From Borreliella garinii (GTDB taxonomy: Bacteria; Spirochaetota; Spirochaetia; JABEVK01): DNA of 64,000 bases. Positions 27,964 to 64,000 of the stretch are shown here, piece by piece. Location: NCBI GenBank assembly GCA_020720765.1, contig DYOB01000001.1, positions 45,222 to 109,221 of the forward strand. The letters run 5' to 3'. The translations under genes and the position numbers were made by a program. Within the stretch, counting starts at the first letter, position 1, and every line of letters begins with the position of its first letter. Under the pieces are notes generated by a model. That model searched no databases. It was not told the origin of the DNA and saw only the letters and a list, made by a program, of their open reading frames with translations.

Positions 27964-29203
27964 GAATTTTTCTTCGATTTACCGTGAGATCCAGGATGAA
28001 GATTTTCCCCAGGATATGGAAATCCATATGGGTAAAGGAGAAAATCAACAGATCCTAAGGTATAAAAAAACCACCTGGAAACTTGAAGAAGGCGAAAAAG
28101 GCCTCAGGTACGGAGAGAATCCCGACCAGGGAGCGGCACTTTACCATTTGGTGGACGGGGGTTTTTCGGCTGGAGGGACCAACCATTTTCCCCCGAATTC
28201 CTTTCTTTCATCACAGCCCGAACTTCTACAGTCAGGAAAACACCCGAGCAAGATCAATATAACAGATACAGATGCCGCACTCGGTATTCTCAGGTGGTTT
28301 GATGACCCGGCCTGTGCCATCATAAAACACAACAACCCGTGCGGAGTGGCACTTGCCGGCAGTATCGGCGAAGCTTTTTCAAGAGCATACCATGCTGACA
28401 GGGTGGCTGCGTTTGGCGGGTGTGTGGGCCTCAATAGAATCCTGGAAAAAGAAACCGCTGAAAAAATCCTAGACGGTTACGTCGAAGTAGTTTTAGCCCC
28501 GGATTTCGAGGAAGGAGTTATGGGTTTGTTTGCTAAGAAGCCCAACGTAAGGGTTCTTCGCATTCCAAATATCGAATATCTTCGGAAATGGGCTGATAAG
28601 AAAGTACTTGAATGGAAAACTTTAGCCGACGGCGGCTTGATAGCCCAGTGGAGTTTCGTCCCCCAGGCGCGTAAGCCAGAGGATTTCTATCCCGCTGAAA
28701 CGGTTTACAAGGGACAAACCTATACCTGCGACCGCCAGCCGAACGAATCGGAGTGGAAGGATATTATCTTCGGCTGGCTGGTTGAGAGCGGCGTGACAAG
28801 TAATTCGGTTATCTATGTAAAAGACCAGGTGACCGTCGGTATCGGAACGGGTGAACAGGACCGGGTAGGGGTGGCGGAAATAGCGAGGGATAAGGCTTAC
28901 CGTAAACTTCAGGACAGACTTTCATGGGAGGCTTTCTCACTTAATTTCTCCCAACTTACCGATCAGGATAAAAAGAGAGAAATAGAAAAGTCAGTCAAGG
29001 CGATGAATGGCGGGTTGAAGGGGGCTGTTATGGTTTCAGATGCTTTCTTTCCTTTTCGCGACGGAATTGATATTGGGTTGAACGAGGGGGTGTCGGCCGT
29101 GGTTCAGCCCGGAGGCTCGCTCAGGGATTTCGAATCCATCCAAGCATGCAACGAAAAAAAATCTACAATGGTTTTCACTGGACAGAGAAGTTTTCGCCAT
29201 TAA
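27956..29203 (+). CDS. purH: AICAR formyltransferase (C-terminal half of PurH) as separate gene; start MAKNF with AAGGA RBS, ATGGCTAA overlap with upstream stop
   Basis: AICARFT signature LRYGENPDQ, downstream conserved KHNNPCG and GGS-like regions; ORF opens at 27878 but first ATG with RBS is 27956. Confidence 0.8.
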   Translation: MAKNFSSIYREIQDEDFPQDMEIHMGKGENQQILRYKKTTWKLEEGEKGLRYGENPDQGAALYHLVDGGFSAGGTNHFPPNSFLSSQPELLQSGKHPSKINITDTDAALGILRWFDDPACAIIKHNNPCGVALAGSIGEAFSRAYHADRVAAFGGCVGLNRILEKETAEKILDGYVEVVLAPDFEEGVMGLFAKKPNVRVLRIPNIEYLRKWADKKVLEWKTLADGGLIAQWSFVPQARKPEDFYPAETVYKGQTYTCDRQPNESEWKDIIFGWLVESGVTSNSVIYVKDQVTVGIGTGEQDRVGVAEIARDKAYRKLQDRLSWEAFSLNFSQLTDQDKKREIEKSVKAMNGGLKGAVMVSDAFFPFRDGIDIGLNEGVSAVVQPGGSLRDFESIQACNEKKSTMVFTGQRSFRH

Positions 29204-29234
29204 AATGTAGTATATTAAATATAGGGGGGATATT

Positions 29235-29582
29235 ATGGGTGAAATAGTAGAAAATAAAGGCATTGATAATAAGAGTGTTGTGACAAGGGGTGTAACAAGC
29301 ATCATAGGCGGTGGCTTAGTTTTTTTTGCTTTGGGAATTCTAGGCGCATTCTGGCCGGTTACGCTGGTCTTGGGCTTGGGGCTCTTTGGCGGCGGAATAA
29401 TTATGGCGAGAAACAACGTCAATAAAGTCCTTGCTTTTCTGATGTTAGTCGTGGGTTTTATTATTTTGATACGGTTTATTCCCTTCGTTGGGAATTTCAT
29501 TGATTTAGTACTTTACATCGGAGCTGGAGCTTTGGTTCTTATAGGTGTCTTAACGCTTTTTAATCACTACAACCGGAAGTAA
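29235..29582 (+). CDS. Small integral membrane protein (3-4 TM), hypothetical
   Basis: 115 aa, hydrophobic segments, G-rich RBS AGGGGGGA upstream. Confidence 0.5.
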   Translation: MGEIVENKGIDNKSVVTRGVTSIIGGGLVFFALGILGAFWPVTLVLGLGLFGGGIIMARNNVNKVLAFLMLVVGFIILIRFIPFVGNFIDLVLYIGAGALVLIGVLTLFNHYNRK

Positions 29583-29585
29583 ACG

Positions 29586-29876
29586 ATGAAACCAGGAATG
29601 CGGTTCTTTTTTCTTATAACGACGCTTGTCTACGGGCTTTTCTTTATAGGGTTTAATCTCGGTAAAACCACCGAGATTTCCCTTGTTGTGTGGAATTTTG
29701 AAAAGGCTCCGACCTTTTTTGTCGTGATCACTGCGTTTATACTCGGAATACTTTTCACCTTGCCCTTCCTGCTAATAACAAGTTCTAAAAAACCCCAGGA
29801 AAGGAAAAAACCTTCCGATCCTGCTAAAATTGTCGAAGAACCCGGCAAGGATAAGATTCAAACTGTACATTCCTAG
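29586..29876 (+). CDS. Small membrane protein, LapA/DUF1049-like (2 TM)
   Basis: 96 aa with two TM helices and basic C-terminal tail; 3 nt after previous gene. Confidence 0.5.
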   Translation: MKPGMRFFFLITTLVYGLFFIGFNLGKTTEISLVVWNFEKAPTFFVVITAFILGILFTLPFLLITSSKKPQERKKPSDPAKIVEEPGKDKIQTVHS

Positions 29877-30519
29877 ACTTTCGGTTTGTTTTTTTTGTTT
29901 ATTAGCTTCAACACTTTTTCCTCAAACTACCTCGAACCCACGTATTCAGGTTGAGGATTTTTTGCGCCAGAATCCTCAAGCGGGGGCATTCTGGAACAAC
30001 CCGGATTTTTGGAGAAGCGATGCCGATCAGCTTTGGCGTGTATACCATTCTCGATTGCCTGGTATCGTCGGCGATACTTGGCTAAGGGCACTTTTGCGGG
30101 ACTCCGAATTTAGGGGAGATGGACAAAGGTGGAGGGCTTTGGCTACTGATTTTGTCAAAACTCTCAGTGTTACGCCCTATAAAGATTCACTGTCTTTATT
30201 ACTCTTGGAACAGCATCTTTTTCATGATTTTTCCCTCCCTGATCCGTGGATCCGATCTTGGATGGATTCACCATATAAAGAAGACACACCGCGGGAAAGA
30301 ATTCTCAGGATACTATACCTGGAAAAAACCCAAAATATTCCCGAAGAGTATTACCAGGAAATGATCAATCCTCAACAGCCTTTATGGCACTTATTCCTTC
30401 TTTCAAGGAAAAAAATTTCAATAGCGCCTTTATTTGGTCCCGAGGGTGGCTTTTTTTCAAGTAAGACAAGGTTTCTTGGAGGGATGGAAAGTGAGGACCA
30501 GTTTAACGCGGTGCGTTGA
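29830..30519 (+). CDS. Hypothetical secreted protein; TTG start inferred, overlaps previous ORF by 47 bp
   Basis: Only long ORF in this 650-bp interval; N-terminal hydrophobic segment LSVCFFCLLASTLF; no ATG near start. Confidence 0.3.
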   Translation: MSKNPARIRFKLYIPRLSVCFFCLLASTLFPQTTSNPRIQVEDFLRQNPQAGAFWNNPDFWRSDADQLWRVYHSRLPGIVGDTWLRALLRDSEFRGDGQRWRALATDFVKTLSVTPYKDSLSLLLLEQHLFHDFSLPDPWIRSWMDSPYKEDTPRERILRILYLEKTQNIPEEYYQEMINPQQPLWHLFLLSRKKISIAPLFGPEGGFFSSKTRFLGGMESEDQFNAVR

Positions 30520-31966
30520 GAATCTCAATTTGCTGTAAACGGACTGCATTTCCCTCTTTAGGACGAATCCCGGAAACCGTGAGGTTGACCGGGGTAAGAA
30601 GGAGTTCCCGCTTAATCTGAATACTCTCTTTATCTTCGAAAAAATCGACTTTGAAGTTCGATGTCCCTAAGGGTCTCCCATTGGGAGAAATGGATTTAAG
30701 TTGGAGAATCCATTCATTGAGGTAAAAAAGCGAATAACCACCTTCAAGTTTTTCTGTTGCGTTATGCCAAACATAAAAAGGTTTTTGAAAATCCATACTG
30801 ATACCACTCTCATTGGCGTAGGTTCCGGAAAGTTCAAATGGCGTAGTCCTTTCTATTTTCTCTTCTTGAAAACTCTCGACTCTGGTATAGGTACCGGGCA
30901 TATTTTCCTCAGGGAAGGAGGAAAGTAACATTATTCTATTTCTATTGACAAAAATTAAGGAGTATTGGATTTGGAGAGGAAATTTTTTCTCGATAGTCAG
31001 GACATTGACTCCCTGGATCGTTAACCCGTTGGGACGGGTGCGAATGGTATTTGTCCATTGATAGATTTCCTGAATAGCGGCCGTACTGAAAATAATCGAT
31101 TTCTGGGTTGGTTGAAAATCCAGAATTACTTCTGGTACGCTGTCCCTTCTCCATATTCCTTCAAGGATGAGTTTCAGATTCTCCGTGGAGGAAGGGGCAA
31201 ATTCTGCCGCTCCGGTTACCTGTATGGCTTGACGTTGGATTTTTTCTATCTGCGAAGGAACAAAAGTATTCTCCTGGAACCGCCAGATATACGTGGTTCT
31301 CAGAGTGTCGAGAGGACCCACCTCTGGATCGGGATCTTTTTCCTCTATAATTATTGGAAAGGAAACGTCCTCTATCTGTCCCATATTATAGGCGTCTGAA
31401 CGGGGAATTTGCTGAATCTCGATAACACCAAGGGCTGTTTGGGAAAAAATATTCTCATAGACCAGACTTTGTTGGCGGGTTGACGGAGTTTGTCTGAAAA
31501 TATCGAGAGTTTGTTTTCCAGATGCGTCCATTCCCATAAACACTATCTCCAAAATATGGTCTCCGATTAAATCCATAGTTTCAAGGGCAATATGGTTTTT
31601 TGAGCCGGCATTAATACTGGTCTTCCAGCTAACATAATAAATAGACCGTGTTTCATCCCTGTCCACAACCAGGATTTGGAGTTCATTCTTCCCGGAAAGA
31701 GTTTCTGCTATGATAAGTATCTGTTCTTCAAAACGATCTTCATCCAGGTTGATTTTCTTTACTAAAAGCAGTTCCTGGGCTGATTCCAAATCAATATACG
31801 GTTTTTCCAAGACAGCAGAGCCGGGAACGCCTTCTGTTGTGAAAATTTCTGTTTCAGAAAGCTGGTTGCTTTGATTTCCACAGGAAATCCCAAAGAAAAG
31901 GGGGAGGAGGATTATTAAATTTTTTGTAGATTTTCTATTCTTCATCGAGTAATTGGGTGAGGTCAT
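30503..31966 (-). CDS. Hypothetical lipoprotein (487 aa)
   Basis: Lipobox LPLFFGISC after basic N-terminus; no recognisable catalytic motif; downstream of nrnA on minus strand. Confidence 0.55.
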   Translation of the reverse strand: MTSPNYSMKNRKSTKNLIILLPLFFGISCGNQSNQLSETEIFTTEGVPGSAVLEKPYIDLESAQELLLVKKINLDEDRFEEQILIIAETLSGKNELQILVVDRDETRSIYYVSWKTSINAGSKNHIALETMDLIGDHILEIVFMGMDASGKQTLDIFRQTPSTRQQSLVYENIFSQTALGVIEIQQIPRSDAYNMGQIEDVSFPIIIEEKDPDPEVGPLDTLRTTYIWRFQENTFVPSQIEKIQRQAIQVTGAAEFAPSSTENLKLILEGIWRRDSVPEVILDFQPTQKSIIFSTAAIQEIYQWTNTIRTRPNGLTIQGVNVLTIEKKFPLQIQYSLIFVNRNRIMLLSSFPEENMPGTYTRVESFQEEKIERTTPFELSGTYANESGISMDFQKPFYVWHNATEKLEGGYSLFYLNEWILQLKSISPNGRPLGTSNFKVDFFEDKESIQIKRELLLTPVNLTVSGIRPKEGNAVRLQQIEILNAPR

Positions 31967-32945
31967 TTAAAACTCTCTGTTTGATTTGTTCAAGCCCCTC
32001 CTGGACTGTAAATCCAGCTGCATTGGTATGACCTCCACCGCCAAAGCTCTGCGCAAAGGTTGCCATGTCGAGGTTGCCTTTCGAACGCAAAGAAACCTTT
32101 ACAGTTCCGTCGGGTATTTCACGGAAAAAAACGGAAATCACCACAGAGGAGCATTTTAAAGGATAATTGATCATATTATCCGAATCTGAGCTTTCAGCCC
32201 CGGTTTTTTTAAGAATTTCTTTTGTTAGGGTTTGAAAAGCAATTTGATCCTTGTACAGGATTTCAAAGCCTGCTTGGACCTCGGCTAGCAGTCTGAGTTT
32301 TTGAGGGGTCATTTTTTCATAAAGTTGTGAATGTACTTCTTTGGGTTTTACACCCAGACTCAGAAGGGTTTCAGCCATTTGGAAACTCGCACCGGTTGTT
32401 TTTGGGTAGACAAAGGAGCCGGTATCGAAAACTAAACCAGTAAAAAGTCCCCATGCTACGTCGGGGGGAATTTCGAGTTTCCAGTGTTCAAACAGCCGAA
32501 AAAGAATCTCTGTCGTCGCGGCAGAAGTGGGGTCAATATAAGAATTGAGAATATCTTTCCTTGTGTTATGGTGATCGATGATAAAAATATCTTTAGCATA
32601 GGGAACAAGTTCGGTCTTACCCGCCCCCATATGGTCGAAATCGCTATTGTCCACCATAATGAGCGCAAAATCCTTAATATCCTTAGAAAAAGAATTCCCT
32701 AAGGTATGAAAAACATCCCTCTCCTTATAGTATGTAAATCGTGGATCCGGGGGATCGGGGTTGATGATCTTCGCTTTCTTCCCTTTTTCCTGGAGTGCAT
32801 AGAGTAGGGCATATTCACTTCCTGTGGCATCTGCGTCTGGTTCGTGATGGCTTGTGATGACAAAGTTTTCCCATCTCTGAATAAAAGAGTCGAATTCTTC
32901 AAATGTGTGCTCTTTGACAGTCTTTCTCACTCCACTATGATACAC
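31935..32945 (-). CDS. nrnA: DHH/DHHA1-family phosphoesterase (NrnA-like nanoRNase / pAp phosphatase)
   Basis: DHH motif IIDHHNT, metal-binding Asp motifs, DHHA1 motif GGGGH near C-terminus. Confidence 0.85.
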   Translation of the reverse strand: MYHSGVRKTVKEHTFEEFDSFIQRWENFVITSHHEPDADATGSEYALLYALQEKGKKAKIINPDPPDPRFTYYKERDVFHTLGNSFSKDIKDFALIMVDNSDFDHMGAGKTELVPYAKDIFIIDHHNTRKDILNSYIDPTSAATTEILFRLFEHWKLEIPPDVAWGLFTGLVFDTGSFVYPKTTGASFQMAETLLSLGVKPKEVHSQLYEKMTPQKLRLLAEVQAGFEILYKDQIAFQTLTKEILKKTGAESSDSDNMINYPLKCSSVVISVFFREIPDGTVKVSLRSKGNLDMATFAQSFGGGGHTNAAGFTVQEGLEQIKQRVLNDLTQLLDEE

Positions 32946-33129: not shown

Positions 33130-35163
33130 ATGCCCATGGGAGCAATTGATTTACCTACGAGTCCAAACGTGTTTCACCCCGAAAAACCGAGTGCGGTCGG
33201 TTCTAGAAACTCTTTGGCCCAGGAATACCGCGACCAACAGTCCGAAGTAGACGGACTATTAACTGAAGAAGTAGATAAGGTTATGAACCATCTTACTTCA
33301 AGGTTGCCCAGGGAGGTTCTTGAGCGCCTTGATGTTATGGGAGGTGTTAAAGAGAAGCTTTTTAACTACTTTAACCAGAACTATCAGAATATGTTCAACC
33401 GGTATTTGACAACTTCTGAAGATGAAATGGTGAAGAAAGTCAGAAACTTCGTTGATAAGGAAGAGGCTAAGACCCTTGCCCGCTACACTCCGAAACAACT
33501 TGCTGAGCTTTTGGATCAGGTCGGCGGCGCGGATAAGTTCAACACCGGAGAGATCGAAAAGTCCATCATCAACATGTATGGTCACCTTCAGGGTCACATC
33601 CAGCGCGGTGTGAACGACCTCGAAAACCTCACAAACGCACTTCTTCGTCAAAAAACAGATGTTGGAGCGTTTATCAGAGGAGAGATGGCCTACAGTATCG
33701 TGAAGTGTTCTTTCAAGGATAACGTTCACAAACCCAAAACAGTTTCCGACGTGAAACTTTCCATCAACATTCTTGATTCAGAACTCATTTCTCCGATTTT
33801 CCACTACCAGGTCACGGTTGAGTTCCTGATTAAGGAAATCTTGGCCAAGCACATTATGGACGAGATCGACAAGGAACTTGATAAGTTGAAGGACACCCTT
33901 CTCGACGAGGGTAAAGAAGAACTTTCCCCCGGATCTATCATGTTTGAAAGGTTTAAAAAGGTTGAAAAGTTCACCGACGACGATAAAGACAGTGCTAAAT
34001 CAGCCCGATACTCCGTTGTAAGCAAGACTTTGATCGACAAAATTGCAGGTCTTCGTGCTGAAATAGACCCCATTGAGTTTGACCAGCTCAATATCCGCGA
34101 AAACCTGAAGCGCATTGTGGATATCGAAAATATCCGTAACCGTGGTTTCAACACTGCGATTAACTCGGTGACTTCTATCCTCGATACCTCTAAAATGGGT
34201 TATCAGTATATCGAAAACCTCAAGAATGCCCGCGAACTTATCATTCGCGAGTATGAGGATTCCGATGCTGACCACCTTCCCGACGAGCGGTATCAGATCC
34301 GCTTGCGCTACTATGATAACGCACAGCTGATTGCAGAACAGAAAGCTTACAGCATCCAGGCTAAGGCCTTCGAAATCCAGGTGAAGCAGTTGTGGGACGT
34401 TCTCGAACAAGTCTACGCTGATTCCAAGTTTTTCAAACGCATCAGTGACTATGAAGATCTTTCGAAAATTTATCAGCAGAAGATCCAGAGAAGCGCCGCC
34501 CTTTCCGGCGAAAGCGCTGAAGATACTACTGGTTTCGATGACATCAAGAAACAGTGGGATGAAATCTCCTTTGTAAACTCTGAGGATACTCCAGTCGAGG
34601 AATACAACAGAACTTACTTGTGGGAAAAGAATAAAATTAAACGCCGTATTATCCTGATGAAAGAAAAGCTTCAGCACATGTACGGCTTCCGTTACCCTAT
34701 TGAGCGCCGTGTACTCGAAGAAAGAATGGTCTTCCTTGAAAAAGAGTTTGCCAAGTTTGAGTACATGATCAACCCGTACCATATCCAGCCCGGTCTTTTG
34801 CTTGATGTGGATATTACTTCCATCAAACGCAAGAAAGCGACTTTGGACGGTATGGCAAACGTGTTGAACGAATTCCTTCATGGCGTTTCTAAGGGTTTCC
34901 AGGACGCAGCATTCGCCAGCTTCAGTAGGCGCCGTTCCACGGTTAGGGAAGACATTGCCCAGAGCTTTGCTTCTCAACCTGCGGAAGAAGGTGCTGCCGG
35001 TGTTGTTCCTGATTATCTCGAAGAAATTAATAATCCTCCACCAAAATCTTCGGTGGTTGCTCCTGCCTCCAAATCGGGTTCAGCCCGAGGTAAGCAGGGC
35101 GGTCCCAAGGCCACTGGGACTTCCCGTGGCGGACGCAAATCTGGCGGATTGAGCGAGATCTAA
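33130..35163 (+). CDS. Long alpha-helical/coiled-coil protein with Gly/Ser/basic C-terminal tail; candidate cytoplasmic filament protein CfpA-like
   Basis: 677 aa, highly charged helical sequence lacking enzymatic motifs; length and position (hypothetical + ppdK downstream) match my recollection of T. pallidum TP0748-TP0746; not verifiable here. Confidence 0.5.
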
Positions 35164-35169
35164 AATTAC

Positions 35170-35204
35170 ATTTTAAGGGTCCCTTTTTAAGGGGGCCCTT
35201 TTTT
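35170..35204 (+). terminator. Probable intrinsic terminator after cfpA-like gene (tandem AAGGGnCCCTTTTT units)
   Basis: AAGGGTCCCTTTTTAAGGGGGCCCTTTTTT directly after stop codon; short GC stems followed by T runs. Confidence 0.4.
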
Positions 35205-35222
35205 ATTTCCTAGGGGGATGCT

Positions 35223-36341
35223 ATGGGTAACTTGGAAGAATTCGAAGGGTTTTCCACACGGGAAAGTTTTAATAAATCCTTGCGGCATTTTAATCTAGTC
35301 ATGGAAGTGATCAAAGAATTTGAAAGCGGCTTTAATCTTGCCGATGTGATAAACGCTTTTCTTTCCAATGGTAAAATGACTGGAAGTCAGATTGCACCGG
35401 TTTTAAGTGCATTGCTTGTAGACAAATACAAGTACTACTTTTCATCTTTTAACATGTCATTAACAGTCACTGAACTTTCACCGATCGCTGATACTGTAGC
35501 CAAATGGACAGCTGCAGATCTTGTGGTGAGTTATTACCACCCTGAAACCGGACTTCTTGTCCTCAACCCCAAGAATGCCGCTCATTGGAAGCAATTGGAC
35601 AGTCTAAAGAAATACGAGATGGTTACCGTTTATTCGGGTGGGATGAAGGATAATATCAAACTTAAAGAGAAGAAAGAGTTTTCGCCATTATTAAAAACAG
35701 TTGCGGATAAACTTTCAGATATTCTTCAAGGAAATAAGATCAAGGCTCCTCCGGTTTTTTTAACGGGGAGTTTTAAAATTAAAAAGTTTTCAACAGGTGC
35801 AGTTCAGGAGTCTCCGAAACAAGTTGCCGGAAAAAGGACGTCATCTGTTAAGAAAAGCGGTGTGTCTCAGTCCCCCTCGGTTTCTAGCGGTGTACAGCTT
35901 GTGGTAAGTTCTGCTGGAACCATGCGGACGGCCTCTGTTGCTCCACAAACTGCCGGTCAACAAACTGGTATTGGGGCGCCACCACCCGTAGCACGCGGTG
36001 GAAGATTAAACAAAATTGGTCCTTTTGGTGTTGTTGTTACAAACGAGCTCTTCCATAATGGAAATGTAGAGGCGTGGAAGAGAATAATTTTCAGCTACTC
36101 CAGCAAATATACAACTTATCAAGTACAAGTTTATTACGATGGGGAAGTTATTCATGACCTGAATAGCTTGTTCAAATGGGGTAAGGTTAAACACGGTACA
36201 GCCATCCTTGTAGCCATCAGCGGTCCGGACCAACAGATACAAGACGTTTCAAAATTGAGGAAGTATTTGTCGGAAGGTGCCAGCCCGAGGTTTGAGCAAT
36301 TTTTACATGGCATTCCGGGTAAAGACCTGGGATTGTTCTAG
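35223..36341 (+). CDS. Hypothetical protein (372 aa) with central Ser/Gly/Gln-rich linker
   Basis: Intact ORF with GGGGGA-like RBS; no recognisable motifs. Confidence 0.5.
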   Translation: MGNLEEFEGFSTRESFNKSLRHFNLVMEVIKEFESGFNLADVINAFLSNGKMTGSQIAPVLSALLVDKYKYYFSSFNMSLTVTELSPIADTVAKWTAADLVVSYYHPETGLLVLNPKNAAHWKQLDSLKKYEMVTVYSGGMKDNIKLKEKKEFSPLLKTVADKLSDILQGNKIKAPPVFLTGSFKIKKFSTGAVQESPKQVAGKRTSSVKKSGVSQSPSVSSGVQLVVSSAGTMRTASVAPQTAGQQTGIGAPPPVARGGRLNKIGPFGVVVTNELFHNGNVEAWKRIIFSYSSKYTTYQVQVYYDGEVIHDLNSLFKWGKVKHGTAILVAISGPDQQIQDVSKLRKYLSEGASPRFEQFLHGIPGKDLGLF

Positions 36342-36350
36342 GGGGAACTC

Positions 36351-39032
36351 ATGAAAGATCATATTATATTTTTTGAAGCAGGAAAGAACGCTAAATCAGC
36401 TGACTTGCTTCAGGATTCAGTTGGTGTTCGTGGAAAACAAATATTGGAACTTGCTGAATTGGGTTTACCCATCCCACCAGGCTTTATTCTTTCTAAAGAA
36501 GTGGCTTCCACGTTTAAAGACAATGACTTACAGGTGGAAATTCAGAAGCAATTAAAAATAGTTAATACGAAAATGGGTAAGAGTTATGGGGATATAAAAG
36601 TTCCTCTACTTTTAAAGCTTGTGATCAGCCCCCCGCTTCAAATAAGTTCCTATCCCTCCATCCACAACGTTGGTTTAACCCAGAAAACTCTGATGGGTTT
36701 TGCTACCAACACCTCAAATATCTTTGCCATAGGCGAGTTTCTTTTTCTGATGAAAGGTGTTCTTGATTTGGAACTCAAGATTCTCAGTGTTAAGGATGAT
36801 AAAGTACTGAGGACAAAAATTGAAAAGGCGGTAAAAGAATACGCTGATTTGAGGAAAAAACCTCCTGTTGCAGATAAATTAGAGTCTTTAGAAAAATCTT
36901 TTTCACTTTTATCAGCACCTGGTGCCGCGCTTTTTCCTAAAGATTTCTTTATTGATCCCATGGTTCAATTGAACCACCTACTTATGAGAATTCGTGATCT
37001 TCTGGCCCTAGAAGAGATCACCGAGGGCTCCGGAGAGAATGACACCGCCATTATTGTTCAACCGATGGTATACGGAAACTTTGGAACAAACTCTTCCAGT
37101 GGTAACTTCTTCACACGTGATGTTATAACCGGGGAAGCAAAGATTCAAGGGAATTTTCACAAAGGCGTGTTCAGCGGAGAAGGCGATGGAATCGATATTG
37201 AAAAACTGGATAAGGCCAATTATTCAGCGCTGACAACCGTCGCACAAAAGCTCGAGTCGCACCTTAAAGAAATACGGCATATCAGGTTTACCATTGAGAA
37301 TGGAAAGCTTTACATTATTGAACAGAAAAATGTAGCGGATAAAAGCACGCGTGCAGATATTTCCATTCTCTTAGACCTCCTTGGCAAGAAAAAGGTTACC
37401 GAAGAGTTTGTTGTTACTTCGATAAAAACAAGCCAGCTCGACGAACTTCTTCACCCTATTATTAAGCCTATTTCTGTTAAAACTTTTCCTGCTTATAAGG
37501 GGGGAATCAGCGGCGCTCCCGGAGCAGCCATCGGTAGGGTCTATTTTAGTGCGGATGAACTTATTGCCGCTCAAAAAAATGCACAAAAAAATGGTGAAGA
37601 CCACAGCATGATCCTTGTTATGACTGCCACCTACGCCAACGATGTAAAAGGTGTTGAAGCCGCTAAAGGTGTTCTTTCTTCCGAAGGCGGGTATTCGGCG
37701 CACGCAAGCGTAGTCGCCCGCCAGTATGGTAAGGTTTCCCTTGTAAGACCGGAGATCAAGATCCTTTATGATCAGAAAAAGGTTGTCATAGGAAGCCATA
37801 CCATCAAGGAAGGCGATTATATAACCCTAAATGTTCCGCACTACGGCGATCCTACTATTTATATCGGAAAAGCCGAGCTGATGGAAAACGAGCCGGAATC
37901 ATCCGGACTCTTAAGTTTTTTAAAGATCGTTAAGAGCTTTGTTAAAGATTTCCATGTAAGAAGCAATGCAGATTCAGTGGCTTCAGCCGAGCTGTCCCTG
38001 AAATTCGGTGCTGAAGGTATAGGTCTCTGCCGTACCGAACACATGTTCTTTGATCCTGCCAGAATCAACGTTTTCCGGGAGATGATTTTCGCTGACGACA
38101 GGGAAGAAAGGGTTAAAGTCCTTAAGAAGCTCGGAGTAATGCAGAAAAAAGATTTCACAGGAATTCTTAAGACTATGGCTGGAAAAGAAGTTACTATTCG
38201 ACTTCTTGACGCCCCCTTCCATGAGTTTCTTCCACATAATAAAGAAGAAGCTGGTGAATACCTTGAATACAGCAAGGGAAAAACCGGTACTGCTGCGAGC
38301 ACCTTGAAAGACATCCTTACGAGGACCGAAGACCTTTTCGAGTTCAACCCCATGCTTGGACACCGCGGTTCAAGAATTGCAGTATCCTACCCTGAAATTT
38401 ACGAAATGCAGGTGACGGCGATTCTCGAAGCCGCTTACGAACTGAAAAAGCAGGGATTGGACGTAAGACCGGAGATTATGCTTCCTGTCATTATGAACGA
38501 AAACGAACTTAAGCTCTTGATTTTCGGAAAGAAAATCGAAGGTGCTTCGTATAAGGGTTTGATCGACGTAGCTGAAGAAGTTGCAGCCCGGTATAAGGAT
38601 CAAAAACCCATCCATTTTAAAGTGGGGACTATGGTTGAGATCCCGGCTGCGGCGGTTTCTGCTGGAAAACTTGCGAAGTACGCTGAGTTCTTTTCCTTCG
38701 GAACCAATGATTTAACCCAAACGACCCTTGGCCTATCGAGGGATGACTTTAACAGTTTTATGCCTGATTATACCCAATTGGATTTACTCAACGGCAACCC
38801 ATTCAAATTTCTTGATGAAGCAGTGAAAGAGATGGTAGCAATGGCTGTTAGGCGAGGAAAGCTGACTAGACCTGATATTATTTCAGGTCTTTGTGGTGAA
38901 CACGGAGCAGTACCGGAAAATATCGAGTTTTGTATGAAAGTAGGTTTGGATTACGTTTCGTGTTCTCCCTACCAAATCCCTAACGCAATGCTGGCTGTGG
39001 CCCAGCTGAATATCAAAAACGGTAAGGTATAA
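36351..39032 (+). CDS. ppdK: Pyruvate, phosphate dikinase
   Basis: N-terminal ATP-grasp region (GLPIPPGF), phospho-His domain (GGYSAHASVVARQYGK), PEP-utilising C-domain (GLCRTEHMFF...); 893 aa. Confidence 0.9.
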   Translation: MKDHIIFFEAGKNAKSADLLQDSVGVRGKQILELAELGLPIPPGFILSKEVASTFKDNDLQVEIQKQLKIVNTKMGKSYGDIKVPLLLKLVISPPLQISSYPSIHNVGLTQKTLMGFATNTSNIFAIGEFLFLMKGVLDLELKILSVKDDKVLRTKIEKAVKEYADLRKKPPVADKLESLEKSFSLLSAPGAALFPKDFFIDPMVQLNHLLMRIRDLLALEEITEGSGENDTAIIVQPMVYGNFGTNSSSGNFFTRDVITGEAKIQGNFHKGVFSGEGDGIDIEKLDKANYSALTTVAQKLESHLKEIRHIRFTIENGKLYIIEQKNVADKSTRADISILLDLLGKKKVTEEFVVTSIKTSQLDELLHPIIKPISVKTFPAYKGGISGAPGAAIGRVYFSADELIAAQKNAQKNGEDHSMILVMTATYANDVKGVEAAKGVLSSEGGYSAHASVVARQYGKVSLVRPEIKILYDQKKVVIGSHTIKEGDYITLNVPHYGDPTIYIGKAELMENEPESSGLLSFLKIVKSFVKDFHVRSNADSVASAELSLKFGAEGIGLCRTEHMFFDPARINVFREMIFADDREERVKVLKKLGVMQKKDFTGILKTMAGKEVTIRLLDAPFHEFLPHNKEEAGEYLEYSKGKTGTAASTLKDILTRTEDLFEFNPMLGHRGSRIAVSYPEIYEMQVTAILEAAYELKKQGLDVRPEIMLPVIMNENELKLLIFGKKIEGASYKGLIDVAEEVAARYKDQKPIHFKVGTMVEIPAAAVSAGKLAKYAEFFSFGTNDLTQTTLGLSRDDFNSFMPDYTQLDLLNGNPFKFLDEAVKEMVAMAVRRGKLTRPDIISGLCGEHGAVPENIEFCMKVGLDYVSCSPYQIPNAMLAVAQLNIKNGKV

Positions 39033-39034
39033 AA

Positions 39035-39061
39035 AACTGGCCCTAGCGGCCAGTTTTTTTT
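39035..39061. terminator. Bidirectional rho-independent terminator between convergent ppdK and minus-strand gene
   Basis: AACTGGCC-ctagc-GGCCAGTT perfect 8-bp stem flanked by AAAAAA on the left and TTTTTTTT on the right. Confidence 0.8.
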
Positions 39062-39072
39062 GTTTAAAGAAA

Positions 39073-39621
39073 CTAAAAGGTAAAGGAAAGTTTGTGAAGG
39101 TTTTCGGTGATAGTTTTAGCTGCTGCTTTAGCGTTAATCTGTGGAACCCCAGCTTCACGGTTTAAAGTTTTCTGAAAAAAAGTATCCAGACTCTCATAGA
39201 CATCGGGCAAATTGTAGAACACAAAAGCAAAATTCACCCCCACCGGTTTGAGAACTGTAAAACTAGAATAGGTGGAAACGGGATCTTTACTGACGTAGAG
39301 TTTTGCTTCATTCTTGCAGGTAAAGAGAATCATTTCATTGTATCGGTGGGGGACAGATTCACCTGCGGATCTGTGAATAGGTTCGACGTGTTTGTTAGCG
39401 TAGGATGACGGTTCGACAAGGATGTGAAGTTTTTTTCCATCGCTCTGAAAAGTTAGCCCTTCAGTGGAGTTGAAAATATTTTTAACCCCGTTATAACTGA
39501 TGATTTCGTACCGGGAATAGCTCGAGTTATCCGAAAAGAAGCTTGTAACAATGTAACCACCCTCACGGGGGAGTTGGTTTGACTGAAAGGCTTGAAACAA
39601 GTCTTGTGCTTTTGTCGACAT
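39073..39621 (-). CDS. Hypothetical protein (182 aa), start refined to MSTKAQ with GGAGG RBS
   Basis: ORF with strong SD 6 nt upstream of internal ATG; no motif recognised. Confidence 0.5.
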   Translation of the reverse strand: MSTKAQDLFQAFQSNQLPREGGYIVTSFFSDNSSYSRYEIISYNGVKNIFNSTEGLTFQSDGKKLHILVEPSSYANKHVEPIHRSAGESVPHRYNEMILFTCKNEAKLYVSKDPVSTYSSFTVLKPVGVNFAFVFYNLPDVYESLDTFFQKTLNREAGVPQINAKAAAKTITENLHKLSFTF

Positions 39622-57932: not shown

Positions 57933-57958
57933 AACCGGCCTGGTGGCCGGTTTTTTTA
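57933..57958. terminator. Bidirectional rho-independent terminator between convergent fba and NifX-like gene
   Basis: AACCGGCC-tggt-GGCCGGTT 8-bp stem followed by TTTTTTT; A-run on the other side. Confidence 0.8.
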
Positions 57959-58360
57959 TTGATGTTCGTGTCTAAGTCCTGAATTTCCAGGACCATGGTG
58001 CGCATCGTGTTCCTCACAGGCACCGCTGGCAATCTCCTTGAGCTTCCCTTCCTCAAAAAGCAAGGCGGTCTGGGCCAAGGTTCCAGAACGAGGCGCTTGG
58101 TAGACTTTTATTCCCTTCACCTTGAGATTTGCTACAGCTCCGGCGCCTATTCCTCCGGTGATCACAACCTCTGCCCCGGTAATCTCGAGCGCTTCAGCCG
58201 GTTTGCAGTGGCCGTGCGGGTGTGATTGGTGGGTGTTGGCCACAACCGTCCAAAGCCTGCTTTCTGTATCGAACACCCCAAAAAACGGCGCCGAGCCGAA
58301 ATGCATGTAAACCTGTTCTTGCGGTCCGGAACCTTCGCCCATTGGCAAAGCAATCTTCAT
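57956..58360 (-). CDS. NifB/NifX-family (dinitrogenase FeMo-cofactor-binding-like) domain protein with His-rich C-terminus
   Basis: MKIALP...HFGSAPFF...VVITGGIGAGA pattern typical of Nitro_FeMo-Co domain; C-terminal EEHDAHHGPGNSGLRHEHQ. Confidence 0.7.
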   Translation of the reverse strand: MKIALPMGEGSGPQEQVYMHFGSAPFFGVFDTESRLWTVVANTHQSHPHGHCKPAEALEITGAEVVITGGIGAGAVANLKVKGIKVYQAPRSGTLAQTALLFEEGKLKEIASGACEEHDAHHGPGNSGLRHEHQ

Positions 58361-58656
58361 AAATTCTCCTTGTGAGTTATGCTCACTTCCATGGATATCG
58401 CGAACCCTCCAAGAAGGGCACGTGCCGTTTTCTTTCTAGCTGACTCAATAATATTTGCAAAAGTGGCTCGGGAAATTCCCATCAGCCCTGCCGCTTCAAC
58501 CTGGTACAGCCCATCGAGATCCGCGAGTCTAAGCGCCTCTATCTCATCCGTTTTAAGCGAAATGACCTCCAGATCCATCATCGGGATGCCCTGGGGTTTA
58601 AAAAACCTGGAGCGCGGGTTCGCTTGGATACATCTCTGTTTCCTCGGCCGGGACAT
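58357..58656 (-). CDS. DUF134/UPF0251-family small DNA-binding protein
   Basis: MSRPRKQR...FKPQG...EIEALRLADLDGLYQVEAAGLMGISRATFANIIESARKKTA matches the DUF134 consensus (sigma-70 region-4-like HTH); ATGA overlap with downstream NifX-like gene. Confidence 0.7.
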   Translation of the reverse strand: MSRPRKQRCIQANPRSRFFKPQGIPMMDLEVISLKTDEIEALRLADLDGLYQVEAAGLMGISRATFANIIESARKKTARALLGGFAISMEVSITHKENL

Positions 58657-61239: not shown

Positions 61240-61691
61240 AACCTGCCACTTAAAAAGGTATTCGATCAAAGCGTGCGGGATGGTAAGATGGTAAAGCTCT
61301 ATTATTTCTAAACCTGTTTGATCCCCAAATTCACCCTAAATTCATTTTACTTCTAGTTTTTCAACCACAGGCCTCACTACGTTCGGCTTCACAGGCGGTC
61401 TACGACCGCTGCAAGGCCCCTAGCATACCTGTTTCCCTCGAAAGGTGCGCCTTGCTTTTTAGTGGGGTGTGAGAGGTTCCAAAATCACCAATATTAAAAT
61501 ATCTCCACCCATTTATATCTCGTAAGTAACCCCACTTGTCGCAGGTTTGAAACAATGGTGCTACTGGTCTGTGTGTGGAGCATTGAAACATAATGTACCT
61601 CTTACTCGTGTTGCTATAATCATTATCAATACAATCAAAATGAAAGACGGAACTAACAACATCCATAGATACATAAAATATTCACCTCTGC

Positions 61692-62435
61692 TTACTCTTT
61701 TAGGGTCCTGAATTCTTCAAGAAGTAACAATGGATCATCTGTGTAGCCAGCCGGTTTAATACGCAATGCTTCGATAAAACGAGCCCAATAATTAACTTTA
61801 GCTGAAAGAGCCGCTATTGCTACTATTTCCTCATGAGAAAAGAGACTGCGAATATCTGACAAAAGATTCGTATCAAAACTAACAGGGGTTTGTGTTATAG
61901 CAACTGCATATTTGAGTGCGGCTTTTTCTTCTTGTGTAAATGATGACACACTCTCAATTGGGGTTATTCCCTGCATTGCCCGTAATTCATCCTCGTTTAT
62001 TAAGTTTTCTTTATATTTCGCAGAGTTTACGTCAATGGCAAAAGGGCACGAAACGGTATATGAGACTTGCATACGTAAGAGAGTTACCAACCGCGGATCA
62101 AGAATTTTAGCAACACCCTTTTCGATATAAAGCTCAAGAGCTCCAGAGGCAATCCCAAGATCCTCGGACCAAGTAAGTATGCGTCCAGGTAATAACTCAA
62201 CCCCAAACTCTTTTTCTGCAAAACACAATAAAAATCCAGAAAATGCGGGAATTTCAGAAGGTGGGCTAATAAAACTCCTTGCCTGAGTATCTATATCTGC
62301 CGTCCAATCTGTTCCACCACCAGGAATAGGTTCATATTCATTCGCCGTTTTATGTGGTTTTATACTATTACAAGAAAAGATACTAAAAAATGTCAATAAT
62401 ATAGCTACAATCCTGAAAATAACGCTATTATTCAT
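61692..62435 (-). CDS. Secreted/lipoprotein carboxymuconolactone-decarboxylase (AhpD-like) family protein
   Basis: N-terminal signal peptide MNNSVIFRIVAILLTFFSIFSC; C-terminal CMD-domain-like region; about 30% GC codon usage. Confidence 0.5.
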   Translation of the reverse strand: MNNSVIFRIVAILLTFFSIFSCNSIKPHKTANEYEPIPGGGTDWTADIDTQARSFISPPSEIPAFSGFLLCFAEKEFGVELLPGRILTWSEDLGIASGALELYIEKGVAKILDPRLVTLLRMQVSYTVSCPFAIDVNSAKYKENLINEDELRAMQGITPIESVSSFTQEEKAALKYAVAITQTPVSFDTNLLSDIRSLFSHEEIVAIAALSAKVNYWARFIEALRIKPAGYTDDPLLLLEEFRTLKE

Positions 62436-62680
62436 CTTGGTTTCTTTTTCATAGCAACAATAATTTTAGGTATAATGAAAAGCAGGACACCAGTTATCAT
62501 TAGGAACAACATGATTAATGATTGTCCCATAAAAACAAATTTTATTGATGATTCTACTTCTGGCGCTATTATTCTAATAATAATGATTGCCGGTATAAGA
62601 ATTATTGTTGGGTATGCTAAGAATCTATGAGCCTTCCGTGCAAATGTATACCACCATTTAAAGTTCATTCTTTCCTCCAA
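62432..62680 (-). CDS. Small 2-TM membrane protein (82 aa), hypothetical
   Basis: Two hydrophobic helices; ATGA-type overlaps with both neighbours suggest co-translation in marR operon. Confidence 0.45.
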   Translation of the reverse strand: MEERMNFKWWYTFARKAHRFLAYPTIILIPAIIIIRIIAPEVESSIKFVFMGQSLIMLFLMITGVLLFIIPKIIVAMKKKPR

Positions 62681-63096
62681 TAGTTGAGAATCTTTAGCAT
62701 GCTTCGGCCAATGTGTTCGATTTCATCTTTATTTAAAACTGAAAATATTTTTTCAATTTTTTGTGAACGGTATTCATTAATTGACTTAATCATTTGGACA
62801 CCTTCGTCTGTTAGGTATAAATGCATTCGCCTGAAGTCATTTTTTTCTTTTTCTCGACGAATAATACCCTTCTCAGCCATATCTTTTACAATCAAACTGA
62901 CAGTTGGTTTAGCTAGCCCAGTATTCTTTGATATTTCTAATACTCCAACACCATTCTCATGGTCCACAAAACGTAATACTTGGAAGGTCCCAGGCGAAAT
63001 ATTAATAGAATGTCCGGCTACATCAAGTAGCCCAGCCTTATGCATCAAATCAATAACTGAAATAAATAAACCTGTTGAGTCTTCAAGACGATCCAT
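62665..63096 (-). CDS. MarR-family transcriptional regulator
   Basis: Winged-HTH MarR pattern (GTFQVLRFVDHENGVGVLEISKNTGLAKPTVSLIVKDMAEKGIIRREK...DFRRMHLYLTDEG); AAAGGAG RBS. Confidence 0.75.
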   Translation of the reverse strand: MDRLEDSTGLFISVIDLMHKAGLLDVAGHSINISPGTFQVLRFVDHENGVGVLEISKNTGLAKPTVSLIVKDMAEKGIIRREKEKNDFRRMHLYLTDEGVQMIKSINEYRSQKIEKIFSVLNKDEIEHIGRSMLKILNYWRKE

Positions 63097-63135
63097 AGTT
63101 GAAATCCAAACTCCTTTTGTTTGTCTTATAAACTA

Positions 63136-63164
63136 ACTATATCATATAATTTCATGACAGTCAA
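63136..63164 (-). promoter_or_regulatory. Sigma70-like promoter for marR operon (TTGACT-17-TATAGT) overlapped by palindrome TATATgATATA
   Basis: Minus-strand TTGACT at about 63159-63164, 17-nt spacer, TATAGT at about 63136-63141, about 35 nt upstream of marR ATG; 11-bp IR at about 63138-63148 overlaps the -10. Confidence 0.5.
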
Positions 63165-63235
63165 GACTTTTAAATAAAAATTAAGAAAATTGGCATTTCT
63201 CTTTTTAAGGGACGGATTCTGGGGAAAATTCAAGG

Positions 63236-63427
63236 TTATATACCCCCGGCACCGCCTTCAAAGGCAATGTCGATATCGAAGTCCAGGATCGATTGTTTAC
63301 CGTTCGCGACTGAGCCGAAGAGCCAAAACCGCTTGACGCCAGGTTCACACAGAAGAGTTTCTGCGAGCCGGGAAGCCACTTGCCTAGCCCGGGTCAATTT
63401 TTGAGCGATGATTTCTTTTTCTGCCAA
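63236..63427 (-). pseudogene. Truncated minimal nucleotidyltransferase (MNT antitoxin-like) gene fragment, 63 aa
   Basis: N-terminal MNT motif KRFWLFGSVANGKQSILDFDIDIAF present but ORF stops about 6 aa later, about 40 aa short of typical MNT; stop coincides with start of AT-rich insert. Confidence 0.5.
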
Positions 63428-63506
63428 GTTTTGTTACCGCAAAGAATCGCTATAGCGGCTTGGATTAAAATCGCTCATAGCTGGTTTGAAATGGCGAACA
63501 ATTTGC

Positions 63507-63770
63507 TCACATAGTGAGTATGAGAAATGTTAAAAATCTCTCTGCATTTTCCAAATGTCCTTGTACTTCCATAGTTTGTTTGGGTTCTAATTCATCCGCG
63601 TACAGATTCCTAAATCGATTCCGGAATTTCAATAAACTCATCAGCGAAGAAAACAGTTCAGCATCTTCTAATAGAACAGGACGAAGGCCTGGAATGTCCA
63701 GTTTCATTCTCTCCAAAAGTGTCCGGTGCCAGCTTTCTTTAGGAGCCTGTTGCGCTTGAGATTTTGACAC
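63507..63770 (-). CDS. Small ORF (GTG start) with weak resemblance to C-terminal half of HEPN/nucleotidyltransferase-substrate-binding proteins; possibly a decayed remnant
   Basis: LLKFRNRFRNLYADELEP resembles the R-x4-6-H-x-Y region of HEPN domains but lacks the His; upstream stop 8 codons before GTG. Confidence 0.3.
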   Translation of the reverse strand: MSKSQAQQAPKESWHRTLLERMKLDIPGLRPVLLEDAELFSSLMSLLKFRNRFRNLYADELEPKQTMEVQGHLENAERFLTFLILTM

Positions 63771-64000
63771 AGGACCGGGGAGCTGGGATGCTCAGGGCGC
63801 CCGGAAACCCTGGTCTGTGTCAAAAAGCCTGAAAGAGTGCCTATTCTACCCTTTATCTGACCAAAACCGCCAATCTTTTAAGGTTATAAGCACAGCTCAC
63901 CAACTGCCACTCCAAGTTGACTTTATTCAGACCCCGAAGCAAAAACTGCCGGAAGCCCAAGACCATCATACTTACTTCGGCATCCACTACCGCTTGGGCG

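Follow-up and report, generated by a model that had tools for sequence, protein, structure and literature searches.

A compositionally foreign marR operon for a predicted AhpD-fold lipoprotein lies directly after rsmG in an uncultured spirochaete and is probably an eroded copy of a mobile envelope module

We analysed a 64-kb window of DNA (64,000 nt of contig DYOB01000001.1, assembly GCA_020720765.1; the window, below, is always this whole stretch) and in particular an AT-rich block at positions 61470-63235, which lies after the mnmG-rsmG gene pair and carries a small minus-strand operon. The operon consists, in this order, of marR, a gene for a 78-aa membrane protein with two transmembrane helices (2-TM) and a gene for a 247-aa AhpD/CMD-like protein with a lipoprotein-type N terminus (Table 1). 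Both gene junctions are 4-nt ATGA stop/start overlaps, as is classic for translationally coupled genes. A first-pass annotation of the sequence had described three tightly coupled minus-strand genes; the ATGA at both junctions bore out the operon, but the membrane protein has 78 residues instead of 82, its start being the ATG at 62668 and not an upstream TTG, on which gene callers and homologues agree. The operon is a real three-gene unit, and its products are a repressor of the MarR family, a very small membrane protein and a predicted lipoprotein that would be exported.

The 247-aa protein had been assigned to the CMD/AhpD family, an assignment that held by PDB search and by fold but failed the Pfam cut-off. 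Its score against Pfam CMD (PF02627) was 16.4 bits (E 0.0089), below the 23-bit gathering threshold, and a precomputed PF02627 hit was recorded for 2 of 112 homologues. A phmmer search of the PDB matched Atu0492 (2gmy, 2e-6), PA0269 and Bmp8, and the use of a family profile lifted the match to 4e-10. The AF2 model, built with 38 homologues, reached a pLDDT of 92.3, and Foldseek against the PDB at E<=1e-3 returned AhpD-like or CMD chains only, with target-normalised TM up to 0.83; Bmp8 (6ohi) ranked first (E 3.5e-6, target-normalised TM 0.76-0.78), followed by mlr4105, Atu0492, PA0269 and DR1765. Because the PDB sequence and fold matches agree, the protein belongs to the AhpD/CMD superfamily even though Pfam CMD stays below cut-off, and on the strength of the predicted model its AhpD-like fold is solid. 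The same all-helical fold is found in AhpD of M. tuberculosis (1knc) and in the AhpD-like proteins PA0269 of P. aeruginosa (2ijc/7xw1), Atu0492 of A. tumefaciens (2gmy) and DR1765 of D. radiodurans (6k40). Compared with the 247-aa protein, the short AhpD-like proteins gave target-normalised TM of 0.76-0.83 and profile E-values of 4e-10 to 2e-9, with the active-site helix in register.

Within that helix the redox motif is lost. The profile alignment placed the AhpD motif G-C-A-F/Y-C-V-D/N-M-H opposite S-C130-P-F-A133-I-D-V-N137. Of 98 full-length homologues, 50 have Cys and 48 have Ser at position 130, 94 have Ala at position 133, and all 98 have Asn at position 137. These counts mean that the dithiol and the catalytic His are gone, that dithiol chemistry is not available and that the first Cys is dispensable. 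AhpD proteins are cytoplasmic and carry C-x-x-C plus His, whereas the 247-aa family has [C/S]-x-x-A...N, a predicted lipoprotein signal, a tether of ~25 residues and an extra N-terminal helical region. On the other hand, F132, D135 and N137 are invariant or nearly so, and ~20 further positions are near-invariant, including R85, W89, E101, E105, R115, R121, S125, E150, E170, Y176, T183 and P184, a level of sequence conservation that argues for a kept functional pocket or interface.

Two enzymes of the superfamily illustrate what such a pocket may do. The best structural match, the debrominase Bmp8 (6ohi/6ohj), is a CMD-family protein acting on a halogenated pyrrole, aligned over 179-188 columns at ~20% identity, and it shows that the fold can process small lipophilic aromatics rather than peroxides. 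Judging from a C82A entry name, its catalysis depends on Cys82; half of the 247-aa family has Ser at the corresponding position. Bmp8 has no recorded export signal, whereas the 247-aa protein is predicted to be exported. The second enzyme, gamma-carboxymuconolactone decarboxylase PcaC, from which Pfam CMD takes its name, performs non-redox, cofactor-free chemistry on the same fold. PcaC differs in being a cytoplasmic enzyme of the beta-ketoadipate pathway, its likeness to the 247-aa protein is at superfamily level only, and no pca genes lie near the operon.

The N terminus of the 247-aa protein consists of hydrophobic residues 3-21 (predicted signal peptide 1-21), followed by S-I-F-S-C22 and a flexible low-complexity tether that extends to about residue 45. 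Cys22 is kept in 87 of the 98 homologues and is the only well-conserved Cys of the family, most homologues reading [AG][GS]C. This is the sequence pattern expected of a lipoprotein family, and export of the window protein is predicted accordingly. The family comprises at least 112 clusters at 90% identity, with source labels of Spirochaetes, Deltaproteobacteria, Clostridia, Bacteroidetes and Haliovirga, and its source annotations read only 'CMD family' or 'alkylhydroperoxidase family'. The literature searched yielded no relevant account of exported lipoproteins of the AhpD-like or CMD type, RcsA and DR1765 being Cys-dependent AhpD-family proteins; as the first-pass annotation had supposed, the family and its combination with these partners appear to be uncharacterised.

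The product of the first gene matched Pfam MarR_2 (34.3 bits, cut-off 27, E 2.8e-8) and MarR (31.9 bits, cut-off 24.6, E 1.3e-7). HpaR was the best NCBIfam match (E 1e-12), below its cut-off, and HpaR, TcaR and BilQ all scored far below theirs. OhrR has a sensing cysteine, whereas the window MarR contains no Cys at all and four orthologues have no conserved Cys in common, which excludes thiol-oxidation sensing of the OhrR type. By default, the sequence would suggest that this MarR binds a ligand. A metal-dependent, AdcR-like MarR was also considered and dropped: only H19 was invariant in a by-eye comparison of five MarRs, and the AdcR model gave E 0.0045.

A sigma-70-type promoter, TTGACT-17-TATAGT at 63164-63136, is present upstream of marR as previously proposed, and its -35 box is kept in homologous loci. 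It scores 10/12 consensus matches, and in five homologous loci the GAC core of the -35 is invariant and keeps its spacing to the operator; promoter-like sites in the AT-rich stretch as such were not above chance (6 found vs 6.9 expected). The candidate MarR operator overlaps the -10 box and reads TAGTTAGTTTATAAGACAAAC in the window (63139-63119). Its consensus, TAGwTwGTTT-N3-AAACwAaCTA, was found at a fixed distance to the -35 upstream of marR in the window and in the comparison contigs L129, L010, L012 and L014 (L-numbers denote comparison contigs or loci, and slash pairs such as L012/L013 are cited together). The L129 copy is a perfect 11-5-11 palindrome, TATAGTTAGTT-tgtat-AACTAACTATA, and its left half-site is identical to that of the window. 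The pattern occurs once in the window and in none of 100 shuffles. The five MarR proteins hardly differ in their recognition helix, TGLAKPT[VA]SL[IL]VK, which fits an operator common to the five loci. On this sequence evidence the operator is probably the 21-bp pseudo-palindrome, shared by five contigs of unrelated context. The palindrome TATATgATATA, which had been named as the operator, does exist, but it is absent from the four homologous loci and adjoins the conserved element, which lies just downstream. The arrangement is like that of the OhrR-Ohr, MarRAB, HpaR and TcaR operons, in which the MarR gene also stands first, is autoregulated and has a palindromic operator over its promoter.

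The 78-aa protein has two hydrophobic segments by hydropathy and positive charges at both ends, from which an N-in/C-in topology is predicted, and it carries an R-x-x-H-R motif ahead of TM1. It is 47% identical to a 77-aa ORF at the same position in L012/L013 and 53% identical to an 89-aa ORF in L129. A word-indexed homologue search returned the query alone; the relatives come from an exhaustive HMMER search, which found only 10 among 1.8 billion representatives, and 9 of them, of 75-99 aa, were aligned. R11, H14, R15, A18, P20 and P26 are invariant in this alignment, and no Pfam family was matched. We conclude that the 78-aa protein is genuine, although small membrane proteins of its family are very rare. 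The genes of distant relatives (~37% identity; L130, L131) show translational coupling with a BON-domain gene or with genes of the Cupin_2 and CopD-like types, and this protein may be a membrane partner that is reused in different settings.

The same gene arrangement recurs elsewhere. The full module reads marR, 2-TM gene, AhpD-fold lipoprotein gene and a gene for a methyltransferase resembling isoprenylcysteine methyltransferase (ICMT). A marR gene for a protein of exactly 143 aa precedes the lipoprotein gene in L010/11, L012/13, L014/15 and L129; for the first three, identity with the MarR of the window was measured and is 42-50%; the 2-TM gene lies between the two in the window, in L012/13 and in L129. 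In L012/L013 and L003/L004 the next gene after that of the lipoprotein is an intact ICMT-like one of 174-180 aa; L098 also has it at this place, cut by the contig end. The intact genes pass the Pfam ICMT and PEMT cut-offs. The L012/L003 partner also weakly resembles the ICMT/PEMT methyltransferases known from isoprenylcysteine methyltransferase and from the Leptospira lipid A 1-phosphate methyltransferase LmtA, but all scores against these equivalog models were far below cut-off. The genes that flank the module are wholly different among the contigs that bear it. Moreover, the marR-lipoprotein pair in L010 (3645-4926) has 52.9% GC in a contig of ~43% GC, a contrast opposite to that of the window, which suggests repeated transfer and that the module is foreign there too. 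No close relatives were found on PLSDB plasmids, which returned only generic CMD genes of 28-32% identity, or on IMG/VR viral contigs. Distant lipoprotein homologues have recurring types of neighbour (an RND pump, ABC-2 exporters, PadR and ArsR regulators, and TetR/GntR-like regulators recognised from N-terminal sequence only), which are typical xenobiotic-response genes.

In the window the fourth gene survives as a remnant that begins 17 nt past the stop of the lipoprotein gene. A tblastn search with the L012 ICMT-like protein aligned only residues 1-37 of that protein (57% identity, E 1.8e-8), and the rest of the ICMT or MNT gene was sought in the other frames of 61240-61560 and was not found there. 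With its methyltransferase gene reduced to 37 codons, the module is incomplete here.

The block differs sharply in composition from its surroundings. It has 35.8% GC, compared to 46.4% for the whole window, and is the lowest-GC stretch of 1766 bp in the 64 kb, ~3.6 standard deviations (sd) under the mean; the fall in GC reported by the first-pass annotation was thus borne out, although its figure of about 30% was too low. GC fractions are 0.352 for marR, 0.317 for the small membrane gene, 0.386 for the 247-aa gene and 0.288 for the promoter region. GC at third codon positions (GC3) was 0.278-0.285 for the three genes, against 0.472 +/- 0.063 for 49 long ORFs of the window, so that the dip is not an artefact of amino-acid composition. 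Weaker low-GC stretches (~41%) occur at about 29150-32000, 35100-36100 and 38350-39300.

We then compared the locus with those of related organisms. The DNA of the window is also present in the metagenome-assembled genome GCA_974321985.1 and in the Logan assembly of SRR1560848. MnmG places the host among uncultured Spirochaetales/Spirochaetia (best match 77% identity). Searches for close relatives of its RsmG in the GTDB species genomes, JGI metagenomes, an exact-sequence look-up and a 5.8-billion-protein database returned only the source contigs, and the lineage is therefore effectively unsampled. The rsmG gene follows mnmG in ~35 related spirochaete loci (distant ones, with MnmG identity of 59-77%), and within 6 kb in these loci there is no lipoprotein, MarR, MNT or HepT gene. 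In the 9 related loci with downstream ORFs listed (among L016-L054), rsmG is mostly followed by a convergent gene of ~460 aa, which encodes a TPR+Mrr_cat protein in both loci scanned (L025, L016), and then by an unannotated gene of ~470 aa, in L025 a 472-aa gene without a Pfam hit that precedes an SLT transglycosylase gene. The usual post-rsmG genes are missing from the window and from ~9 kb past its end; hence, synteny breaks directly after rsmG. The statement that parAB usually follows mnmG-rsmG is wrong for this lineage, the related loci having the convergent ~460-aa gene instead.

Both edges of the imported segment are marked by gene fragments, one from the host side and one its own. The host-side fragment is a stump of an MNT-type nucleotidyltransferase gene that covers only positions 8-38 of 93 of the NTP_transf_2 profile and 5-31 of 106 of MntA, and its GC fraction is 0.516 vs 0.288 in the adjoining promoter region. 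Taken together, the atypical GC and GC3, the truncated genes at both edges, the absence from ~35 related loci and the recurrence in unrelated contexts make horizontal acquisition of the block likely, in line with the horizontally acquired look first attributed to it.

Table 1. Genes and regulatory elements of the block and its edges, in window positions
Feature	Position	Strand	Description
ICMT/PEMT-like methyltransferase remnant	61561..61674	-	37 codons and stop; fourth gene of the module; left edge as defined by homology
Lipoprotein gene	61692..62435	-	247 aa, AhpD/CMD-like, all-helical; start ATG overlaps stop of the 78-aa gene
2-TM gene	62432..62668	-	78 aa, inner-membrane, predicted N-in/C-in; start ATG overlaps marR stop
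marR	62665..63096	-	143-aa winged-helix MarR-family repressor, cysteine-free; Pfam match above cut-off
Candidate MarR operator	63119..63139	-	21-bp pseudo-palindrome TAGTTAGTTT-ata-AGACAAAC, overlapping the -10 box
Sigma-70-type promoter	63136..63164	-	-35 TTGACT at 63164-63159, 17-nt spacer, -10 TATAGT at 63141-63136 preceded by TG
MNT-type nucleotidyltransferase (antitoxin) stump	63236..63427	-	63 aa; ends where GC drops
HepT-like (HEPN toxin) gene	63507..63770	-	87 aa; Pfam HepT-like_2 E 4.7e-12, above cut-off
DDE_Tnp_1_6 transposase C-terminal remnant	63853..64000	-	Runs past the window end; L001:8314-8595

Several observations were made on the flanking DNA. MNT and HepT form a toxin-antitoxin pair (63236-63770) in which HepT lies upstream; MntA usually comes first in such pairs. 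The pair is probably defunct, since the MNT gene is only a 63-aa stump. An 18-nt inverted repeat at 63762-63825 (83% complementary, 28-nt spacer), which runs from the 5' end of the HepT-like gene upstream, could be a toxin-antitoxin operator or a terminator. A defence-system reading of the operon, raised by its HEPN/MNT neighbour, was rejected: in PADLOC, neither the lipoprotein nor the 2-TM protein had a match, and those of MarR were of a generic winged-helix kind only. The block itself contains no mobility gene, as had been stated of integrases and transposases, but the C-terminal remnant of a DDE_Tnp_1_6 transposase starts at ~63853, ~0.6 kb away; the corresponding L001 ORF scored 28.1 bits against a cut-off of 25.1 and covers profile positions 72-124 of 125. 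Farther along L001 are genes with Pfam hits to DNA_alkylation, MFS_1 (weak), SelO, SEC-C, Exo_endo_phos and Na_H_Exchanger, none of them syntenic with related spirochaetes. On the other side, the 320 bp between the rsmG stop and the ICMT stump (61240-61560) are of normal GC and match no gene, tRNA or Rfam family; they include a perfect hairpin, GCGGTC-GTA-GACCGC, at 61395-61409, without a T-run. Divergently upstream of mnmG, DUF134 and Nitro_FeMo-Co-family genes (57956-58656) overlap by 4 nt (58357-58360).

We consider it probable that the block, with its foreign composition, represents a small mobile four-gene operon in a partly eroded copy, inserted in the variable region directly after rsmG of an uncultured spirochaete and encoding a non-redox small-molecule module of the envelope. 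Its most likely function would be that of a ligand-induced, non-redox envelope module for a small molecule. According to this model, the cysteine-free MarR dimer would bind the 21-bp pseudo-palindrome over the -10 box and repress its own operon until released by a small, probably lipophilic or aromatic-anionic ligand rather than by thiol oxidation. A single mRNA would then be translated with ATGA coupling, the 78-aa protein would insert in the inner membrane, and the 247-aa protein would be exported across it, acquire a lipid at Cys22 and stay tethered to its periplasmic face. In that position the pocket derived from AhpD, with Ser/Cys130, the invariant D135 and N137, R85/R115/R121 and E101/E105/E150/E170 as candidate pocket residues, may bind a small molecule or act on it by non-redox chemistry. 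In intact modules the membrane methyltransferase, whose gene has been lost from this genome, would probably work together with the lipoprotein on that molecule.

A number of observations weigh against parts of this reading. With respect to acquisition, no sister genome free of the block was found, and the insertion is thus inferred rather than observed; in addition, no tRNA genes, Rfam hits, meaningful terminal repeats, target-site duplication or integrase were detected at the block. With respect to the module, lipoprotein homologues of <=61% identity have no constant neighbours, which appear only in the closest subclade (>=63%), and the association of the lipoprotein with MarR, 2-TM and ICMT may be recent or a coincidence. 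In the window copy of the operator the right half-site is degenerate (7/11), and the operon may be under decay. As for export, the signal peptide or lipobox read earlier is borne out by the N-terminal hydrophobic segment and by Cys22 but not by a strict PROSITE-like lipobox, [LVI][ASTVI][GAS]C, which 23 of 98 homologues pass and the window protein, with Phe at -2, does not; spirochaete lipoboxes are relaxed. Finally, we infer entirely both the role of the lipoprotein, as an enzyme or as a binder, and its ligand.

The alternative that survives best, although still unlikely in our view, is that the lipoprotein is no enzyme and serves as a small-molecule-binding or structural protein of the envelope, perhaps signalling through the 2-TM partner or anchored by it. 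The three canonical catalytic residues are all lost, Ser and Cys interchange at position 130, and most homologues stand alone without an enzymatic partner; eukaryotic sestrins similarly reuse the AhpD fold as a ligand-binding module. However, charged or polar side chains are frequent among the ~25 invariant residues (R85, E101, E105, R115, R121, S125, D135, N137, E150, E170, Y176), which suit a catalytic pocket at least equally, and the recurrent adjacency of a methyltransferase suggests a common substrate. The more ambitious proposal at the opposite end is also rather doubtful: that the 247-aa protein represents a new class of exported, cysteine-independent AhpD-fold enzymes (Ser/Cys-130, Asp-135, Asn-137) which, together with the R-x-x-H-R 2-TM protein and the ICMT-like methyltransferase, would carry out a periplasm-facing modification or detoxification of small molecules or lipids under a ligand-sensing MarR switch and would move between phyla.

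It is improbable that the operon is a decaying, functionless remnant, the cargo of an old insertion under erosion. The fourth gene cut to 37 codons, the degenerate right half-site and the neighbouring MNT and transposase stumps would all agree with erosion, but the three ORFs are full length compared with their homologues (143 aa; 78 vs 75-99 aa; 247 aa aligned end to end), and both ATGA overlaps, the -35, the -10 and the L129-identical left half-site are kept. We regard as very improbable that the block is native and owes its low GC to the AT-rich codons of membrane and secreted proteins or to a mutational bias that acts locally, close to where a syntenic block ends. The lack of mobility genes inside the block, of flanking repeats and of a tRNA, the lack of an empty-site genome in the collections searched and the dips to ~41% GC elsewhere in the window speak for it; yet GC3, which is largely independent of amino-acid content, is ~3 sd under the window mean for all three genes, including that of the soluble MarR, gene stumps mark both edges, a toxin-antitoxin remnant and an insertion-sequence remnant adjoin, and the module occurs in unrelated contexts with opposite GC contrast while related spirochaetes are devoid of it. 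Least credible is the periplasmic organic-peroxide or redox defence with OhrR/Ohr-like logic originally proposed, in which a thiol-sensing MarR would control a peroxide-reducing exported CMD protein: the nearest structures are indeed AhpD-like proteins labelled 'antioxidant defence', MarR has a weak NCBIfam OhrR match (E 3.9e-5, far below cut-off) and the window protein keeps Cys130 at the peroxidatic position, but C-x-x-C...H is lost in the family (resolving Cys to Ala, catalytic His to Asn, Cys130 to Ser in nearly half, as counted above), MarR and its orthologues have no conserved Cys, the operon provides no thioredoxin, DsbD, AhpC or Ohr partner, and a periplasmic lipoprotein would have no obvious reductant.

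The preferred interpretation of the block as an acquired, non-redox envelope module places an uncharacterised, exported, cysteine-independent branch of a known superfamily within an ordinary MarR-type cassette. 'Alkylhydroperoxidase' or 'antioxidant defence' is the routine annotation of AhpD/CMD proteins, and it is misleading when given automatically to the 247-aa family, because this branch appears to have left the cytoplasm, is devoid of the redox motif and retains a highly conserved pocket. For this genome the meaning is modest, that of a small, partly eroded, acquired stress-response cassette in the variable region by rsmG. For the superfamily, the substrate, if found, would add a non-redox extracytoplasmic activity and explain the recurrent link to ICMT-like methyltransferases.

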